The position numbers were made by a program, and so were the translations under genes. The notes under the pieces are model-generated. The model was given only the letters and a program-made list of their open reading frames with translations, was not told where the DNA came from and ran no database searches. Shown here piece by piece: positions 34,045 to 42,249 of a stretch of 64,000 nucleotides of DNA. The stretch's first letter is position 1. Each line of letters opens with the position of its first letter. The stretch is from an uncultured Patescibacteria group bacterium (GTDB lineage Bacteria > Patescibacteriota > Microgenomatia > UBA1400 > PJMF01), in NCBI GenBank assembly GCA_905478415.1, contig CAJQIG010000004.1, forward strand, positions 75,523 through 139,522. Reading direction: 5' to 3'.

Positions 34045-34223
34045 GTCGATCTCCCTTTAAATTATATCTTGTTGCATTATAACGCCATTTTATGTTGATT
34101 CATACCTTAAAGGTAAAAGCAGGCAAACCTAGAGGTTGTTTTTCCTAGCAAACTTAGAATTTCGTGTCAGAAAAAAATAAATAAAGTTGAGGCTCGCTGT
34201 CGTGGATGAAGTTAGGAACTGTT

Positions 34224-34427
34224 TTATTTAGCTTCTTCTATCTGTTTAGGTGGACATTTACTATCTGCATAAGAACAAAAAACACAACAATCACCTTTTT
34301 TAGGAGTCATTGTCTTTTCACATTTCTCACACTTGAAAAAGTGCTGACAAGCATCTGTCGGCATTTCAGAAATTTGATCATGACCACAAAAGGGGCAAGT
34401 TATTGTAGCAGTTGTTTTTATTTCCAT
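34224..34427 (-). CDS. Cys-rich small zinc-ribbon protein (10 Cys in 67 aa)
   Basis: CPFCGH...CQHFFKCEKCEK...GDCCVFCSY...CPP. Confidence 0.4.
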   Translation of the reverse strand: MEIKTTATITCPFCGHDQISEMPTDACQHFFKCEKCEKTMTPKKGDCCVFCSYADSKCPPKQIEEAK

Positions 34428-34570
34428 GCTTCCATCATAGCAGGTTCGAGCCTCCTATTCGGGTTATAAAAAATACTCGAGGAAAAACCTCGTGCTCCCC
34501 GCTCTTGAAGAAGTTAGGAACGGATTACTTTTAACAAACTACATGCCACCACAATCTCTGTAAGCCCTAT

Positions 34571-35002
34571 CTAGTTCACTTTTCTAACCTTCACCAAGTC
34601 ATCAACACCCTCAACAGAAATCTGCCTACCATTAACACCATCAATTACCATCGCATTTGGTAAATGTGCGTATCGGTACTTGTATTTGCCCTCAGTCTGC
34701 TCCCAAACTTGACCATTCTGAAACTGAAACTTCATTCCATGATTAAAACCTTCAAATTTTGAGGTAATTCTGCCCTCAGTCACTATTTGAATTTGTTGCA
34801 CCTCTACCGTGTCATTCATTCCTTCAATACTGATAACATAACTACCAGTAGAATTAGGTTTAATGACCACAGCAGGTCGATAAGCATAATGGTAGTTATA
34901 CTTATACACACTCTGCTGCCAAACTTGTCCATTATCTAGTTTAAAGACGGATTCACCATCAAACCCATGGAACTCACCTTCTATGTGACTATGTATTGTC
35001 AT
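34571..35002 (-). CDS. Hypothetical protein with two tandem ~67-aa beta-rich repeats (possible di-Ubl/beta-grasp)
   Basis: Internal duplication: GEFHGFDGESVFKLDNGQVWQQSVYKYNYHYAYRP... vs SKFEGFNHGMKFQFQNGQVWEQTEGKYKYRYAHLP... Last gene of the cassette operon. Confidence 0.5.
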   Translation of the reverse strand: MTIHSHIEGEFHGFDGESVFKLDNGQVWQQSVYKYNYHYAYRPAVVIKPNSTGSYVISIEGMNDTVEVQQIQIVTEGRITSKFEGFNHGMKFQFQNGQVWEQTEGKYKYRYAHLPNAMVIDGVNGRQISVEGVDDLVKVRKVN

Positions 35003-35351
35003 AATTTTCCTCCAATTCTCTGTACCATACTATTCTACCGCTATTTAACCAAAAGTGGCTTTTACATCCCTTTAGTCTCCATATTGAAGGAGATAGCGAA
35101 GGTCGTTTCTTTTTTACTGTCATCTCCCAACGAGGATGCACATCTTCTTGACAATTTAAATAGATTTTTGCTCCACAACCACAAGGGCACTTGAGAATGA
35201 AATACCATTGATAGCCATTTTCGCCGACCACATATAAGACCTTGTCCTTTACTGACTTTGGATTAAAACTCTGCACTGAAACAATTTTAAAGTATTCATC
35301 AAACCCAATTTTATTTCTAAGCCAACGGACAAAAGTATTTACTATTTTCAT
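34989..35351 (-). CDS. Zinc-binding Cys/His cluster protein (possible treble-clef/RING-like), 120 aa
   Basis: LKCPCGCGAKIYLNCQEDVHPRW...KGCKSHFW; 4-nt overlap with the JAB-E1 gene. Confidence 0.45.
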   Translation of the reverse strand: MKIVNTFVRWLRNKIGFDEYFKIVSVQSFNPKSVKDKVLYVVGENGYQWYFILKCPCGCGAKIYLNCQEDVHPRWEMTVKKKRPSLSPSIWRLKGCKSHFWLNSGRIVWYRELEENYDNT

Positions 35352-36745
35352 AGTGATGGGTATCCCAGTACTACTTTCTGGTCACCTAGACCAATCTTTT
35401 TCACTAAACTAGTATCTATTCCTCTTGATTTGATTGGCTCAATATAACTATCCAAAAGACTCATCCTCAAGCTCACAATTTCAGTATCTAAACCAAATCT
35501 AAGACCATGTAGTCTATTAAGTAACTCTAGTATTCCAAAGCTAGCAGCGAATGAGTTAGGAGTAATAACTGCAGGAACTTCTTCTGGTAGTCCAGGTAAG
35601 TAACCCTCATCAAGCTGCTTTCTGTATTCTTCTCTGTTGGAGGCTTTCATAGATGCAGCAGCTAATTGTGATGAATTAAAAATCCCCCGTTTATGAAGTG
35701 ACTCACCTGGTAAAATATAGTCTGCTCTTGCTGATACATGCTCAACCCCTCCATTACCATCAATCAAAATTTTCACTCCTACATCTATTATTGGAATTAG
35801 ATAGTATGTCCCCATGCGGTTGATAACCTGCCTTGCATATACATCATCAACACAGCTAAATAAAACATCGCACCCTTTCAAAAAATCAACTGCAGCTCGG
35901 CTTGCGATACTTTCTTGCATTACATTAACAGTTGTTCCTAAACCAAGTTCATTTGCATATCTAACAAATACATCTACCTTTGACGACTTATTTTTGACAT
36001 CTCCTGTTGTCGCCCCAACAATTCTATTAAGATTTTTTGCTTCAACTATGTCTGGGTCAATCAAGGTAAGAGACTGAACTCCATAATGAAGCAGCTGTTG
36101 GATAACTAAACTTCCTGTACCAGAACAACCAATTACTCCAACACGAAGCTTTTTTAGTTTTGATAAGGTTTCTGACCCAAAAACCTGATGTGACCTTTTT
36201 TCATGCTCAGCTAATTCACCGATATTTTTTATTTTGGGCGATATTCTGTCCCCAACCATAAGAACGTCATCCACATCTTCAAATTTTTCTTGATTGAAAA
36301 CTCTTGCTTTTATTACACCATCTGGCAAAAGTATTGCACTCATGAATGAATTCTCTCTTCCTAGCCAAGAATGGACAGTATTTGCTAGCGACTTATCAGA
36401 GATATCATCTGCATTCGAGAATGTCTCAATGCCCGAGGGGTGACTATGAATCTTAAGTATTCCATAGGAACCATCAATGTATTCACTCAATTTTTCTGCC
36501 AGAAGAGCCGTCTTCCAAGTTATATGAGATTTAGAACGACTCTTAATTTCTTCTAAATTAAAAGGGACTATCTCGTGAACCAAAAAAATAATTTCACCTT
36601 TACTTTCTGCAACTCCACATACAACAATAGCCACCGATTCCTTTGAGTCCCCAGGGTAAAGATAACCTTTTATTTCTGTTAGCTGCGGTTCTGTAATTCT
36701 CAGCCTAATCGATTTTTTCATGCTAATGTCTCTTTTTCCAACCAA
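35348..36745 (-). CDS. JAB/JAMM deubiquitinase-like domain fused to E1-like (ThiF/MoeB) adenylyltransferase domain
   Basis: N-terminal JAMM motif E...HSHPSGIETFSNADD (HxHx7Sx2D). C-terminal Rossmann VGVIGCSGTGS...LIDPDIVEAKNLNR typical of E1/ThiF. Confidence 0.8.
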   Translation of the reverse strand: MVGKRDISMKKSIRLRITEPQLTEIKGYLYPGDSKESVAIVVCGVAESKGEIIFLVHEIVPFNLEEIKSRSKSHITWKTALLAEKLSEYIDGSYGILKIHSHPSGIETFSNADDISDKSLANTVHSWLGRENSFMSAILLPDGVIKARVFNQEKFEDVDDVLMVGDRISPKIKNIGELAEHEKRSHQVFGSETLSKLKKLRVGVIGCSGTGSLVIQQLLHYGVQSLTLIDPDIVEAKNLNRIVGATTGDVKNKSSKVDVFVRYANELGLGTTVNVMQESIASRAAVDFLKGCDVLFSCVDDVYARQVINRMGTYYLIPIIDVGVKILIDGNGGVEHVSARADYILPGESLHKRGIFNSSQLAAASMKASNREEYRKQLDEGYLPGLPEEVPAVITPNSFAASFGILELLNRLHGLRFGLDTEIVSLRMSLLDSYIEPIKSRGIDTSLVKKIGLGDQKVVLGYPSL

Positions 36746-37440
36746 GTAGTAACCTGGAGAATGTGTGTGCCAACCCCATCTACATCAGACCTCCATTCAT
36801 CAGCGCTTTTTCTATGTCTTGACCACCTTTGGAAAGATTGACCCTTAATTTGTTGTTCTGATATTTTTTCTACAGTTTTTTTTGAATTTAGAGTTAAATG
36901 TGGGTGAAAGTATGCCATATCAATCTGCACATCTGGATATGCTGGAGGAATCATCAATGCTAAAGTTGCTCTCTTTTGGTCATATCCATGCGGAACTTCA
37001 AAGTCATAGAGAAGGAGCCAGTTACTGGCTCCTTCCTTTATTGCTTCCCATTTTTTGAAAGATTTAGTGAGATGGCTTTTGTCATCTTCAGGTAAATCAA
37101 AATCATTCCCATCACCCTCTGTTTGGTCAAGTGGCATTGTTATGAATCGTTCTACACCAGGTCGTGTTAAGTTGATTATTTCGTCATAATCAATGCGTTG
37201 AACTTGTCCTCCATGTAGTTTTTGACTAATCATAAACTGCTCCACGGGTGTTTTACCTGCAAGCTCGAGCAACGAACGACCTGATATGGTTTCTGTATTA
37301 ACCACGAAATGCTGGCGGTCGATGAGAATTTTATATCTACGTCCTTTCGGAATAGGCTTTTTAGACCTTGCATGAGCTTGGAGGTCAATTACCTCAGCTT
37401 TACTAGCTTCTACTGTTTTGTTGGGGGTGTCATTAGACAT
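36718..37440 (-). CDS. Ubiquitin-like (multiubiquitin-type beta-grasp) domain fused to an E2/UEV-like domain that has no cysteine
   Basis: N-terminal YKILIDRQHFVVNTETISGRSLLELAGK...IDYDEIINL beta-grasp pattern. C-terminal LALMIPPAYPDVQIDMAYFHPHL resembles the UBC fold up to the HPN-like motif, but there is no Cys anywhere in the protein. Confidence 0.55.
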   Translation of the reverse strand: MSNDTPNKTVEASKAEVIDLQAHARSKKPIPKGRRYKILIDRQHFVVNTETISGRSLLELAGKTPVEQFMISQKLHGGQVQRIDYDEIINLTRPGVERFITMPLDQTEGDGNDFDLPEDDKSHLTKSFKKWEAIKEGASNWLLLYDFEVPHGYDQKRATLALMIPPAYPDVQIDMAYFHPHLTLNSKKTVEKISEQQIKGQSFQRWSRHRKSADEWRSDVDGVGTHILQVTTWLEKETLA

Positions 37441-37533
37441 ATCCCTCCTTTATCGCCTGTCCAAAGCAATACTTTATATAAACAGGGTTTTCAATAGAAA
37501 CTGTATGCTATACAATGAAAGTGTAACGTCACT

Positions 37534-37607
37534 GCAACAGTTGTTTCATTCCAACCCTGTGTGAGTTGGACTAAAAACTAGTTATACACCAACGAAACAG
37601 CTGTTGC
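37534..37607. promoter_or_regulatory. Pair of near-palindromic 14-bp sites GCAACAGTTGTTTC / GAAACAGCTGTTGC in the divergent promoter region; candidate XRE-repressor operators
   Basis: Two inverted copies (13/14 identical) at 37534-37547 and 37594-37607, between the Ubl operon and the XRE gene. Confidence 0.4.
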
Positions 37608-37639
37608 AAGTGTTAAACACTTAGGATATACTAACTACT

Positions 37640-38002
37640 ATGAGCAAACTTACAATTCAACGTATTGGCATCGAGATAAAAAACAAAAGAGGCACCAAAG
37701 GATTAAGAGAAACAGCTAAAATAATCGGAGTAAGTGCTGCAACACTTTCAAGAATTGAATCTGGAAAACAACCCGATTTAGATACATTTGTCAAAATCTG
37801 TAAGTGGCTCGAAATCAACCCCTCAGAAATACTTTCTTTTGAAGAAACTCAGCCCTTTTCCTCAGACGACGTTAACAACAATAGTTTCACATCAGCACAT
37901 TTAAGAGCAAATAGAGAACTCTCTCCTGAAACCGCTAGTCATTTAACACAGGCTATACTTTCCATGCGTGAATTCCTCTCTATGAACGATGATGTTTCAT
38001 AA
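37640..38002 (+). CDS. XRE-family helix-turn-helix transcriptional regulator (CapH/ImmR-like)
   Basis: LRETAKIIGVSAATLSRIESGKQ HTH_3 motif. Confidence 0.75.
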   Translation: MSKLTIQRIGIEIKNKRGTKGLRETAKIIGVSAATLSRIESGKQPDLDTFVKICKWLEINPSEILSFEETQPFSSDDVNNNSFTSAHLRANRELSPETASHLTQAILSMREFLSMNDDVS

Positions 38003-38010
38003 GGGGTGTC

Positions 38011-38577
38011 ATGTCAAACTTCAAACTTAACCCAGGATTCAAGAGATGGTGCGAGAAAGCTGCAACTGCTTTTCGAAGTGAATTTGGTCTCCTGGCAACT
38101 GCTGCTCTTCCATCAGAAAAAATGGCTGAATATCTGAATGTTCAGGTTGTTGAATTTTCTGAGTTGAGAATCCCTGCTGAATCTAAGACATATTTGCTGA
38201 CACAAGGTTCCAAAGAATGGTCTGCAGCAACTGTATCTAGCTCAAAAAAAACAGTTATTTTAATCAATGAAAGTCATACTGAGGAAAGAAAAAACAATAG
38301 CCTTATGCATGAGCTCTCTCATATTATTTTGAAGCACGAGCCATCAAAGTTTACCAACCTACTCGAAGCTGGTATTTCCTTTCGCACATACGATGAAAAG
38401 CTTGAAAAAGAAGCTGATTGGCTCGCCGCAACACTACTTCTTCCCAAAGATGTTTTAGAAACTATTGGAGCAATAGTTTCTAAGGCTGATATAGAGAGAA
38501 AACACACCGTAAGTCCAGAGCTTCTTAGATTTAGGTTGAATCTAACTGGAATTGGTAAGAAAATTAAAAATCAATAA
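38011..38577 (+). CDS. ImmA/IrrE-family zinc metallopeptidase (CapP-like)
   Basis: SLMHELSHIILKHE HExxH motif; located immediately downstream of the XRE gene. Confidence 0.7.
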   Translation: MSNFKLNPGFKRWCEKAATAFRSEFGLLATAALPSEKMAEYLNVQVVEFSELRIPAESKTYLLTQGSKEWSAATVSSSKKTVILINESHTEERKNNSLMHELSHIILKHEPSKFTNLLEAGISFRTYDEKLEKEADWLAATLLLPKDVLETIGAIVSKADIERKHTVSPELLRFRLNLTGIGKKIKNQ

Positions 38578-38582
38578 AAGAA

Positions 38583-39035
38583 CTAACCCAAAGTAACATA
38601 GAAAAATGTTCTTTTTATTATCAGGTGACATGCAGATACCAAGAACGATGATATTGTTGAAAAAAGTATAAAAGCTATGATATCAGTTTCGTAAAAAATT
38701 TCTGCATTATGCTCATTGCAACTTATATAGCTCACCACCTGCCCCTCTTCATATCCTTGACTTCTTAAACTCTTAAATTCCTGTACCTTGGCTGGAGAAA
38801 TGCCCTGAGGAAGAATTACCTCATCTTTCTTCCCAAACCCTTTAAATTCATATTCTGGTTTAGACAAATAAGTTGAGCAGTCTTTATATCCATCCGTTGG
38901 TTTCTGAGACATCGAATAGCTAACACCAAACCCCACCAAGACAGTAAAAATAAGACCAAAAGTGTAAATTACTTTTATCAACCTTGTAAAGGGATTTTTC
39001 TCAAGTATATTTTGGTTTTGTTCGTTTTTTTTCAT
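38583..39035 (-). CDS. Hypothetical membrane protein
   Basis: N-terminal and C-terminal TM helices; no recognisable motif. Confidence 0.4.
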   Translation of the reverse strand: MKKNEQNQNILEKNPFTRLIKVIYTFGLIFTVLVGFGVSYSMSQKPTDGYKDCSTYLSKPEYEFKGFGKKDEVILPQGISPAKVQEFKSLRSQGYEEGQVVSYISCNEHNAEIFYETDIIAFILFSTISSFLVSACHLIIKRTFFYVTLG

Positions 39036-39096
39036 ATTTTCTTTGGCATGTACGCCAAAGACATTTTATCTCAACTTTGGCATAAAGACCATATAC

Positions 39097-39327
39097 ATGT
39101 TGAATAAAAATCAAATTGATTTAATCAAACAAACATTTGGTGAAGTAGTAAAAGAACTCAGAGACCAACACAACTTATCTCAAGAAAAACTTGGATTCGC
39201 TGCCGACCTCGACTTAACATCAATCAATGAAATTGAAAAAGGTCACAGAAACCCAAAGCTAACTACAGTATGCAAGCTTGCAAAAGCACTTGGAGTTAGC
39301 CCTTCTGCCTTATTAAAAAACCTTTAG
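39097..39327 (+). CDS. XRE-family HTH regulator (small)
   Basis: LRDQHNLSQEKLGFAADLDLTSINEIEKGHRNPKLTTVCKLAKALGV; start taken at MLNK. Confidence 0.6.
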   Translation: MLNKNQIDLIKQTFGEVVKELRDQHNLSQEKLGFAADLDLTSINEIEKGHRNPKLTTVCKLAKALGVSPSALLKNL

Positions 39328-39677
39328 ATTTCATCGTCCTCATCTACAAACATAATTTTCATTGGTTGGCTACTAACCTCTACTTCAATAGTTCCAAACT
39401 CTTCTCTAGCTTTCTTCTCTAAATACCACTTCGCCACTCCTACACTGTCTAAATTATCAAAAATAGTTTTTCTTGCTTTTAACACCGGATTAATTTTCCA
39501 GGTGTTTTTTTGCTCCGAAAACTCATTATTTTCTTGTTGATATAGGTAGAGTGTGCTTTGAGAAATATCTGCGTAAATACAGGCTTCTCTATCAGTACAT
39601 CCCATCAAAAAAGCTTCTCTTAATCTCGAAATAGTTTCTGGAGTCATGATAGTTGGTCTACCTAATTGTTCGCTCAT
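39324..39677 (-). CDS. Hypothetical HTH-containing protein (terminase-small-subunit/transposase-HTH-like)
   Basis: RPTIMTPETISRLREAFLMGCTDREACIYADISQSTLY resembles HTH_23-like folds; weak. Confidence 0.35.
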   Translation of the reverse strand: MSEQLGRPTIMTPETISRLREAFLMGCTDREACIYADISQSTLYLYQQENNEFSEQKNTWKINPVLKARKTIFDNLDSVGVAKWYLEKKAREEFGTIEVEVSSQPMKIMFVDEDDEI

Positions 39678-40024
39678 GCTTCTAGTCTAACAATTTTTAT
39701 TTCAAAACATTACTTTCTTGAAAAGTAATTTTCTCAAGGAGCTGAGCAATTTTTTCTAAAAGGTAAGGTTTTGCAATCGAAATCTGTAAGCTGTAAGAAC
39801 AAGCGGGCTTCATGTGAGTCCCCATCAGTACATCTTCTAGCCCCAGGTGTACTGACAGGGGTTCAAATCTCCCAAAAACGCAAAAATGAACAAATCAGCA
39901 AACCCATTGCCAAAAGAAGCAGTGGAAGAATACCAGCGTATCTATTTCAGTGCCTATGGAAAGCAGCTTCCATACGAGGAAGCTGAATTAAGTGGTGCCA
40001 AACTCATACAACTGATTATGTTAA

Positions 40025-40600
40025 TTGAAAGGGCTGAGGATGCAAACAATCAACCTTAATCCTTTACATGGTATTAAACAAATGAGCATGGGTTACTTTA
40101 CAATTCCAAGGGTTGTCATATTGGAGTTAATAAAAGAAAAACATCTAAACCTTACAGAACTCGGCTATTTTATTATCTTGATTACTATAGCTGATTGGGA
40201 CAAAGGTAGATTCCGTAATGGCTTTATACGTTACGAAATAAGTGAATTAGCAAAGGTGCTAGAAATATCTGAATCTAGCTTGTACAAGTATATAGCTAAG
40301 TTTAAAAAAATTGGACTCATAACTGAGACAAGAAATGTTTGTAAAATTGAAAATTATAAAGATTTTACTCTACGAGGCTCCCAAGAAATAAGCAAAGTAC
40401 CTCTTTCAATAGAAAAATACCTAGTACTATTTCCACATTTAGCTAGTGAAGATTCCAACATCATGGAACATGCCCAGGCTAACACAGCATCTAACTTTAA
40501 TAATTCTTTTAAGAGTTCTTTGGGGGATTCTTTAGGAGTTGGATTACAAGAGGAAAGAAAAAAGCTAATCAAATCTAAAACAGTAAAGAGTATAAAATAG
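40025..40600 (+). CDS. Hypothetical island protein (possible winged-helix DNA-binding)
   Basis: No recognisable motif; position upstream of the recombinase. Confidence 0.35.
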   Translation: MKGLRMQTINLNPLHGIKQMSMGYFTIPRVVILELIKEKHLNLTELGYFIILITIADWDKGRFRNGFIRYEISELAKVLEISESSLYKYIAKFKKIGLITETRNVCKIENYKDFTLRGSQEISKVPLSIEKYLVLFPHLASEDSNIMEHAQANTASNFNNSFKSSLGDSLGVGLQEERKKLIKSKTVKSIK

Positions 40601-40608
40601 GAGTTATT

Positions 40609-42216
40609 ATGAAACGTGTTTTTATGTACTGCAGAAAATCAAGTGAAGATAAGGGTAAACAGATACTCTCAATAGACGACCAAAAACGTGAATTATGGCG
40701 AATTGCTAAAAACCTAAACTTAAAAGTAATTGATGAGCCAATCGAAGAAGTAAAGTCAGCTAAAGCACCAGGAAGACCAAAGTTTAGTGAGTTGGTAAAA
40801 AAAATCTATAATAATGAAGCTGATGGTATTTTATGTTGGAAACTAGACCGACTTGCTAGAAATCCCATTGATGGTGGCAACATCATTTGGATTGTAAAAG
40901 ACCAAGGAAAGGTTATTTACACACCTTCTCAAACCTTCTCCCATCAGTCAGAAAATACTATCATGATGTACATCGAGTTTGGTATGGCACAAAAATACAT
41001 TGATGATTTAGGAAAAAGCGCAAAAAGAGGCATGAAAACAAAAGCTGAGATGGGGTGGTATCCTGCTCATGCTCCACTTGGTTATGAAAATACACCTGGT
41101 GAAAAGAAAGGTTCAAGAAAAATAATAAGTGATAATAATTTCAAGCTAGTTCAACGGTGTTTTTACGAAATTCTCAAAGGCAAACAAGCTTCACATGTTT
41201 GGAGAAAAGCTAGAGAAAAATGGGGGTTAAAGTCAAAAAAAGGGAATCCCGTTGCTCACTCTACTTTTTACAACATATTAACTCACCCCTTTTACTATGG
41301 TGAATATGAGTGGCCTCGTGGTAGTGGAAATTGGTACCAGGGAAAGCATGAGCCAATGATTACCAAAGAGCAATTTGATGTTGTGCAAAAAATGTTAGGA
41401 AAAAATGGAAAGCCAATCTCTAGGAGTCATACTTTTGATTTAACTGGACTCTTTAGATGTTCAATCTGTAGCTGCGCAATTACTGCCACAAAAAAAACTA
41501 AACACTATAAAACTACAGGAAGAATTGCAGAATACACCTATTATCACTGTTCCAAGAAAAATCAAAATATCAAGTGTTCACAACCCCCTGTCAGTGAAAA
41601 AGACTTCGAGAACGAAATTATGAAGCAACTAATGATGCTCAGACCTCCAGAGGAGTTTGTGACTTGGGCGAAAAAATGGATTAAAACTGTACATGACTAC
41701 GAATCTCAAACAGAAGAAGAAATACTTGCATCTCAAAATAAAGAGCTTGAATCAGTCGAAAATCAGCTGAGCAATTTACTTGATTTGCGTATCAGAAGTG
41801 ATATTGACGACTCAACATATAGGAGCAAAAAAACACTCCTTGAACAGGAAAAATTGACTGTTAAAAGAAAGATTAACGAATCAGGAAACAACCTTTCATC
41901 TCTTAGAATTAGAGTAGAGAACGCTATCGACATAGCCTATGGCTCACATCTAAGGTTTAAGACTGGAAAACGTGAGACAAAACAAGAGATTCTAGTGAGC
42001 CTTGGCTCGAACCTCATCTTAAATCATAAAAAAATACGGATAGACCTGTTAAAACACTTTGAAGTCTTTAGAGATAATGAAAAATGGGAAGATACATATG
42101 AAGATTGGCTCGAACCTCAAAAATACATGGAACTATTCGAAAAAAGACCTGATTTGCGACCTGCAAATCCAGTATGGCTCCCCCGGGAGGATTCGAACCT
42201 CCAACCTACCGGTTAA
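40609..42216 (+). CDS. Large serine recombinase (resolvase/invertase N-domain + recombinase domain + zinc ribbon). The 3' end of the ORF reads into tRNA-Asn, so the true stop may be earlier.
   Basis: YCRKSSEDKGKQ...SIDDQ (catalytic Ser); recombinase-domain and CxxC...C zinc-ribbon region; 535 aa. Confidence 0.8.
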   Translation: MKRVFMYCRKSSEDKGKQILSIDDQKRELWRIAKNLNLKVIDEPIEEVKSAKAPGRPKFSELVKKIYNNEADGILCWKLDRLARNPIDGGNIIWIVKDQGKVIYTPSQTFSHQSENTIMMYIEFGMAQKYIDDLGKSAKRGMKTKAEMGWYPAHAPLGYENTPGEKKGSRKIISDNNFKLVQRCFYEILKGKQASHVWRKAREKWGLKSKKGNPVAHSTFYNILTHPFYYGEYEWPRGSGNWYQGKHEPMITKEQFDVVQKMLGKNGKPISRSHTFDLTGLFRCSICSCAITATKKTKHYKTTGRIAEYTYYHCSKKNQNIKCSQPPVSEKDFENEIMKQLMMLRPPEEFVTWAKKWIKTVHDYESQTEEEILASQNKELESVENQLSNLLDLRIRSDIDDSTYRSKKTLLEQEKLTVKRKINESGNNLSSLRIRVENAIDIAYGSHLRFKTGKRETKQEILVSLGSNLILNHKKIRIDLLKHFEVFRDNEKWEDTYEDWLEPQKYMELFEKRPDLRPANPVWLPREDSNLQPTG

Positions 42217-42249
42217 CAGCCGGGCGCTCTGCCATTGAGCTACAGGGGA
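42175..42249 (-). tRNA. tRNA-Asn (anticodon GTT), CCA encoded
   Basis: Hand-folded cloverleaf: acceptor UCCCCUG/CGGGGGA, D-stem GCUC/GAGC, anticodon loop CUGUUAA, T-arm GGAGGUUCGAAUCCUCC, discriminator G plus CCA. Close to E. coli tRNA-Asn. Confidence 0.85.

Follow-up and report, generated by a model that had tools for sequence, protein, structure and literature searches.

Bub systems and the locus under study

Bub is a bacterial ubiquitination-like system in which serine and tyrosine take the place of cysteine; in its Type I version BubAB is a fusion of a ubiquitin-like protein (Ubl) with an E2, BubCD a fusion of a JAB peptidase with an E1, and BubE a protein of the DUF6527 family (Ye, Gong, Chambers & Corbett, preprint, bioRxiv 10.1101/2024.11.21.623953). 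Here we analyze a 64,000-nt stretch of DNA (positions 75,523 to 139,522 of contig CAJQIG010000004.1, henceforth the window) carrying an operon whose first gene, bubAB, codes for a Ubl-E2 protein devoid of cysteine. We conclude, with a probability of roughly 0.88, that this locus is a Type I Bub ("6E.1" or DUF6527) operon and that bubAB encodes a BubAB pre-protein with non-Cys conjugation chemistry. Every sequence feature by which Type I Bub is recognized was found: a Ubl-E2 fusion with a Gly at the junction, an E2 half with Ser, His and Asp, a JAB-E1 fusion with a Tyr in the crossover loop, and a DUF6527 protein with a four-Cys site and a catalytic dyad. The domain architecture, the gene order, the catalytic residues and the fold are established at the locus itself.

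Experiments on such systems concern homologues from Citrobacter and E. coli; the Citrobacter BubAB is cut after G229 by the JAB domain of BubCD, which frees a conjugatable Ubl (bioRxiv 10.1101/2024.11.21.623953). According to the same preprint, the ATP-dependent conjugation of BubA is lost upon introduction of Y370F or S333A/H335A, whether assayed in vitro or in E. coli, and the conjugates are erased by wild-type BubE and restored by its S92A or H102A variants; S333 was placed at the position of the E2 cysteine, the E1 tyrosine adjoins the Ser/His pair of BubB in the crystal structure, and the CapH+CapP pair is present at 31% of Bub operons (bioRxiv 10.1101/2024.11.21.623953). Ubls with one β-grasp domain (the Ubl_1 class) make up 40% of Bub Ubls (10.1101/2024.11.21.623966).

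The cysteine-free BubAB protein

36718-37440, minus strand: bubAB, Ubl-E2 pre-protein, 240 aa, ATG start, no Cys, Pfam Multi_ubiq and Prok-E2_E
bubAB residues 1-109, minus strand: BubA portion, single β-grasp, last residues DQTEG109
bubAB residues 110-240, minus strand: BubB portion, UBC-like fold, with D174, S207 and H209

Pfam searches matched Multi_ubiq to residues 36-102 of BubAB (E 1.2e-13) and Prok-E2_E to residues 116-237 (E 8.8e-34, with model positions 1-123 of 123 covered), i.e. far above the level of chance. A sequence search of the PDB paired BubAB with the Citrobacter BubB (9eae_C, E 5.4e-17), which is about 31-32% identical to the BubB half, and also with domain 3 of the Citrobacter BubA (9ea8_B). 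The AlphaFold2 model built on an alignment of 57 sequences has a mean predicted local distance difference test score (pLDDT) of 90.1; its N-terminal half superposes on BubA β-grasp 3 (template modelling score, TM, 0.80) and its predicted BubB fold superposes on the Citrobacter BubB at 1.3–1.4 Å, and the BubB half, as modelled, has the UBC fold. A preliminary description of this DNA, made from the sequence alone, had called the protein a multiubiquitin-type Ubl fused to an E2-like domain without cysteine and had proposed an alignment to the Prok-E2 families and an AlphaFold model as checks; both bear it out.

The 240-aa translation contains 0 Cys, hence no thioester can form on BubB, and the preliminary description was right in stating that a canonical E2 thioester is impossible. 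Compared with a canonical E2, BubB possesses the UBC fold and lacks the catalytic Cys and the HPN motif. The HPH tripeptide in the segment ALMIPPAYPDVQIDMAYFHPHL (residues 161-182) had been taken for an HPN-like motif; the likeness is one of position only, with P180 alone conserved across the family and H179 and H181 variable.

In the alignment with the Citrobacter protein, D174, S207 and H209 are the counterparts of D299, S333 and H335, an equivalence that identifies S207 as the E2 active-site serine and D174 and H209 as E2 active-site positions, while G109 corresponds to G229 (chain position 78 of 9ea8_B) once the alignment is extended by one residue. Among 57 homologues collected in a general protein search, without any motif filter, G109, S207 and H209 never vary, while at least 90% have D174. 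G109 is invariant also in 64 sequences from Bub loci of GTDB, for which, as for the other counts of conservation and gene order given below, the 80 best loci out of 448 matches in GTDB species representatives were used. Half of the 64 homologous E2 halves from these loci have no Cys, and at every alignment column Cys occurs in at most 9 of the 64; judging from these alignments, the absence of Cys is a trait of the BubB family. Identical copies aside, the closest BubAB shares 58% identity, which is the maximum in the databases searched, and its locus (L093) has the whole CapP-CapH-BubAB-BubCD-BubE cassette in common with the one described here.

BubCD, BubE and the layout of the operon

35348-36721, minus strand: bubCD, JAB/JAMM peptidase-E1 fusion, 457 aa when read from ATG 36721
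34989-35351, minus strand: bubE, predicted DUF6527 serine-protease-type deconjugase, 120 aa, PF20137

Four genes lie on the same strand in the order bubAB, bubCD, bubE and a gene for a 143-aa protein, with overlapping stops and starts: the ATG of bubCD overlaps the stop of bubAB as ATGA, and the start of bubE overlaps the stop of bubCD by 4 nt. The mechanically delimited open reading frame (ORF) of bubCD begins at TTG 36745 (35348-36745, 465 aa), with the ATG 24 nt downstream; gene callers choose the 457-aa version, in which the JAB glutamate is E28, the same number as in Citrobacter. The operon encodes no second Ubl. Among the 80 related GTDB loci, BubCD comes after BubAB in 79 and BubE in 74, and the complete order BubAB, BubCD, BubE is found in 74.

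BubCD matches the Citrobacter BubCD (9ea4_A) over its full length (phmmer search of the PDB, E 3.2e-62) and the Pfam ThiF family with E 8.9e-30. Its single adenylation domain is that of a homodimer-type E1, with ThiF/UBA5-like matches. The JAB residues E28, H92, H94 and D105 correspond to E28, H91, H93 and D104 of Citrobacter, the adenylation residue R233 to R227, and the crossover-loop Y374 to Y370; all 75 genomes compared have the same six residues (457-aa numbering). The crossover loop has no Cys, all Cys residues of BubCD being located outside it.

BubE was assigned to PF20137 (DUF6527; E 4.7e-23), a family named BubE in a newer Pfam release. Its zinc site C55/C57/C59/C96 is equivalent to C57/C59/C61/C99 of the Citrobacter protein and its dyad S89/H99 to S92/H102, and the S-7-C-3-H spacing is the same as in Citrobacter S92/C99/H102; none of these six residues varies in the 74 genomes compared. 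Among general collections, PADLOC (a 2023 library with no Bub model) returned only generic E1-E2, capP and helix-turn-helix (HTH) matches, and NCBIfam contained no match for BubAB, BubE or the 143-aa protein.

Proposed pathway and alternative explanations

By homology with the Citrobacter system, the operon would be kept off by a CapH repressor until a CapP peptidase, triggered by DNA damage or infection, removes it. The JAB domain of BubCD would then cut the BubAB pre-protein after G109, giving BubA (a single β-grasp with a C-terminal Gly) and BubB (the Cys-less E2). The E1 domain of BubCD would adenylate G109 of BubA, Tyr374 of the crossover loop would accept BubA as an oxyester, and BubA would move to Ser207 of BubB as a second oxyester, helped by His209 and Asp174, to be passed finally to the lysines of target proteins in an isopeptide linkage. 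BubE, a putative Zn-stabilized Ser89/His99 protease, would take BubA off again. Cleavage, conjugation and the mutant phenotypes are known only from the Citrobacter or E. coli homologues and are proposed here by homology; how this operon is regulated, what it targets and what role it plays are inferred.

The preliminary description had offered three ways in which an E2 without cysteine might function, of which the non-Cys mechanism is the one that agrees with the invariance of S207 and H209, the conservation of D174, their alignment with S333, H335 and D299, and the inactivity of the homologous S333A/H335A mutant. Another was conjugation straight from the E1 (BubCD), in which case BubB would act only as a specificity factor. 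This would suit a minimal homodimeric E1 that carries a conserved nucleophile of its own (Y374), and a BubA-BubCD species indeed arises in the absence of BubB; that species, however, is still seen in Y370F and was judged off-pathway, the conjugates required BubB with intact S333/H335, and the E1 Tyr is next to the BubB Ser/His pair in the crystal (bioRxiv 10.1101/2024.11.21.623953). The conservation of the Ser/His/Asp set in BubB contradicts this route as well, and we consider it very unlikely.

We find it just as improbable that the N-terminal β-grasp is never released, and that it is not a tag but an adaptor or substrate-presenting module of the E2. The preliminary description had favored such a role, having correctly observed that the β-grasp does not end in Gly-Gly (its C-terminus reads ...LDQTEG109-DG), and Ubl and E2 do share one polypeptide. 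Yet many Ubls (those of the ThiS/MoaD type) are adenylated with just one Gly at the C-terminus. Moreover, G109 in the DQTEG motif is invariant and aligned with G229, the mapped site of JAB cleavage, the neighboring JAB domain keeps every catalytic residue, and there is no other Ubl in the operon that could serve as the tag.

The third suggestion was a UEV-like (ubiquitin E2 variant) scaffold; such a catalytically dead protein would only bind Ubl or present substrates, any conjugation being done elsewhere, and we hold this to be extremely improbable. The active site of a UEV lacks a conserved nucleophile and conserved catalytic residues, whereas in BubB S207, which aligns with Citrobacter S333, is invariant together with H209, and D174 nearly so; besides, S333A/H335A ends conjugation in vitro and in cells (bioRxiv 10.1101/2024.11.21.623953). 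Finally, the idea that errors of sequencing or assembly produced the Cys-less frame and conceal a catalytic Cys, a frameshift that the preliminary description had asked to be looked for, found nothing in its favor and is refuted: the other two minus-strand frames across bubAB are closed by 16 and 31 stops, 22 contigs, which come from several independent metagenome assemblies, encode the very same protein, the match to the Pfam model runs from end to end, and a conserved Cys is missing from the whole family.

Several points weigh against the assignment as Type I Bub with non-Cys chemistry. BubB is only about 31-32% identical to its characterized Citrobacter counterpart, and its proposed activity is ascribed by homology. 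The oxyester intermediates were deduced from mutants and structures and were not trapped chemically, and the Bub operons tested gave no protection from phage in E. coli (bioRxiv 10.1101/2024.11.21.623953). The Pfam Prok-JAB match in BubCD (E 2.5e-4) scores 21.4 bits, below the gathering threshold of 25 bits, so that the JAB assignment depends on the conserved E/HxH/D residues and on the alignment with the Citrobacter BubCD over the full length. The 80 GTDB loci were retrieved with a WSRHR pattern, which renders the invariance of S207 and H209 among them circular; the independent support for Ser and His is thus that of the 57 homologues.

The biological output of Bub is presumably anti-phage or stress defence. 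As none of the Bub operons tested protected E. coli from phage, this role is deduced from the context, and it is from context, too, that the authors of the system argued for defence or stress response (bioRxiv 10.1101/2024.11.21.623953).

Putative regulatory genes, mobile element and probable host

37441-37639, between the divergent genes: intergenic region of bubAB and the capH-like gene, 199 bp, with an inverted repeat
37640-38002, plus strand: capH-like HTH repressor, 120 aa, Pfam HTH_3 5.4e-09
38011-38577, plus strand: capP-like Zn-metallopeptidase, 188 aa, Peptidase_M78 1.1e-16, HELSH motif

The pair of an HTH repressor and an M78 metallopeptidase, divergent from the operon, is what characterizes CapH/CapP, and it is kept in the nearest Bub relative, where an orthologue of the capH-like protein (58% identical) occupies the same position; the capP-like protein was matched by the PADLOC capP model (1.4e-13). 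The intergenic region contains an 18-nt inverted repeat (37533-37550 / 37591-37608, TGCAACAGTTGTTTCATT / AACGAAACAGCTGTTGCA), 89% complementary, which is a candidate operator for CapH.

Between the capP-like gene and the next HTH gene, the minus strand encodes a 150-aa protein (38583-39035) with no family match and with hydrophobic segments near both ends, which possibly span the membrane. The nearest relative has a 153-aa gene at this place (L093 1608-2069), in whose product no sequence similarity to the 150-aa protein was detected.

39043-39327: HTH repressor-like gene
39324-39677: small-terminase-like gene (phrog_4102, 2e-15)
40025-40600: DnaD-like loader (phrog_186)
40609-42216, plus strand: large serine recombinase, Resolvase/Recombinase/Zn_ribbon_recom, CcrB/XisF-like in NCBIfam
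42175-42249, minus strand: tRNA-Asn, overlapped by the 3' end of the recombinase gene

A small integrative serine-recombinase element at the tRNA-Asn gene (genes at about 39043-42249), with a gene set reminiscent of phage satellites, appears to carry the Bub operon. The GC content of the element is 36.9%, versus 39-41% in the flanks. Searches for att-type direct repeats of the element found none, and the 3' end of tRNA-Asn was not found in duplicate; an empty site, sought via the flanking 486-aa protein, was not found either, as every contig carries the element, so that these searches set no left boundary.

The window is chromosomal, encoding MutS, MutL, DnaG and TypA. The closest named relatives of TypA (1094-2923) come from Candidatus Woesebacteria, WWE3 and Patescibacteria, and on this basis the host is probably a bacterium of the candidate phyla radiation (CPR; Patescibacteria). 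The longest contig that encodes the same proteins measures 584 kb. Of the 448 matches in GTDB species representatives, the best 80 include neither the host genome nor any locus from Patescibacteria.

An operon with a 50%-identical BubAB (P0005, L095/L096) adjoins a type II CBASS (cyclic-oligonucleotide-based antiphage signalling system; CD-NTase, Cap2, Cap3 and a SAVED effector), and a reverse transcriptase is encoded upstream in the same locus, a defence-island setting. A context of defence or stress fits also the locus analyzed here, given the mobile element at a tRNA gene, the CapH/CapP pair, and the type II CBASS and reverse transcriptase genes beside this relative.

The 143-aa gene downstream of bubE

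34571-35002, minus strand: gene for a 143-aa protein, tandem β domain of ~70 aa, no family match

This gene and the stop of bubE overlap by 14 nt, and the two genes are probably transcribed together. A 79-aa single-domain homologue of its product is encoded after bubE in the nearest Bub relative (L093). Elsewhere the family is found in islands beside restriction-modification (RM), HEPN, TIR or PemK genes, or LexA-like repressors.

We considered the 143-aa protein as a general Bub component and rejected this, as a homologue is present in 0 of the 80 GTDB Bub loci and the homologues occur mostly in other island contexts. Rather unlikely, in our judgment, is also the narrower proposal that it could be a lineage-specific fifth component (a target, a sensor or an effector) of compact single-β-grasp Bub systems, which in Patescibacteria would be carried on small, satellite-like serine-recombinase elements; should this hold, it would provide a first handle on what Bub conjugation does.

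Just past the terminator-like hairpin of the operon there is an imperfect 38-nt direct repeat (34192-34229 / 34494-34531, 71% identity), which flanks an ORF for a 67-aa, Cys-rich, zinc-ribbon-like protein (34224-34427, minus strand).

Comparison with known systems

The Cys-less E2 is a genuine oddity, but one that is already explained in the literature of 2024-2025, with Bub structures deposited in 2025: Bub pathways conjugate their Ubl through Tyr and Ser oxyesters, which accounts for an E2 without cysteine. The locus alone leaves the existing knowledge of Bub unchanged. What it adds is a divergent and compact example, with a one-domain Ubl, a probable CPR host and a small mobile element, which could be of comparative use in finding out which features of Bub are essential and what its role and targets are. 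The remaining interest lies in the function of Bub, in the probable CPR host and in the possible accessory gene.

Among the more distant systems, eukaryotic UEVs (Tsg101, Mms2) are non-catalytic binders of ubiquitin, unlike BubB with its invariant Ser and His and near-invariant Asp in the active-site region. Type II CBASS has an E2-E1 fusion and a JAB protein (Cap2/Cap3), but Cap2 forms Cys thioesters, the conjugated moiety is the C-terminus of the CD-NTase and not a Ubl, and no DUF6527 protein is involved. Bil (BilABCD) resembles our locus in that a bacterial Ubl, E2, JAB and E1 conjugate the Ubl to lysines and are encoded in defence islands; it differs by catalytic cysteines, a eukaryote-like E1 with IAD-AAD-CYS domains, separate genes, the lack of DUF6527 and a demonstrated anti-phage function, whereas the genes described here are fused and encode a single adenylation domain and no catalytic Cys.

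Type II Bub (6E.2; BubA, BubBD and BubE, e.g. in E. coli ZDHYS365) shares with this locus the E1 Tyr/E2 Ser chemistry, the multiubiquitin-type Ubl and the DUF6527 protease. It has, however, an E2-E1 fusion and a Ubl that stands alone, and it mostly lacks a JAB, in contrast to the Type I fusions found here, and its E2 Ser is paired with Lys and His instead of His and Asp.

The closest match remains the Type I Bub of Citrobacter sp. RHBSTW-00271 (PDB 9ea4, 9ea8, 9eae, 9eav), with the same three genes in the same order, the same Ubl-E2 and JAB-E1 fusions, all catalytic and zinc residues kept, and both the E2 and the E1 crossover loop free of Cys; the mobile element at a tRNA gene is a further likeness, and Bub operons often have regulators of the CapH/CapP type. 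The differences are that BubA has one β-grasp (Ubl_1) here versus three in Citrobacter, that the BubB proteins are 31-32% identical, that the host is Patescibacteria-like rather than a proteobacterium, and that bubE is here coupled to one more gene, the one for the 143-aa protein. Since BubA consists of a single β-grasp, the Ca2+-dependent filaments of the three-domain (Ubl_3) proteins would not be expected in this compact version of the system.

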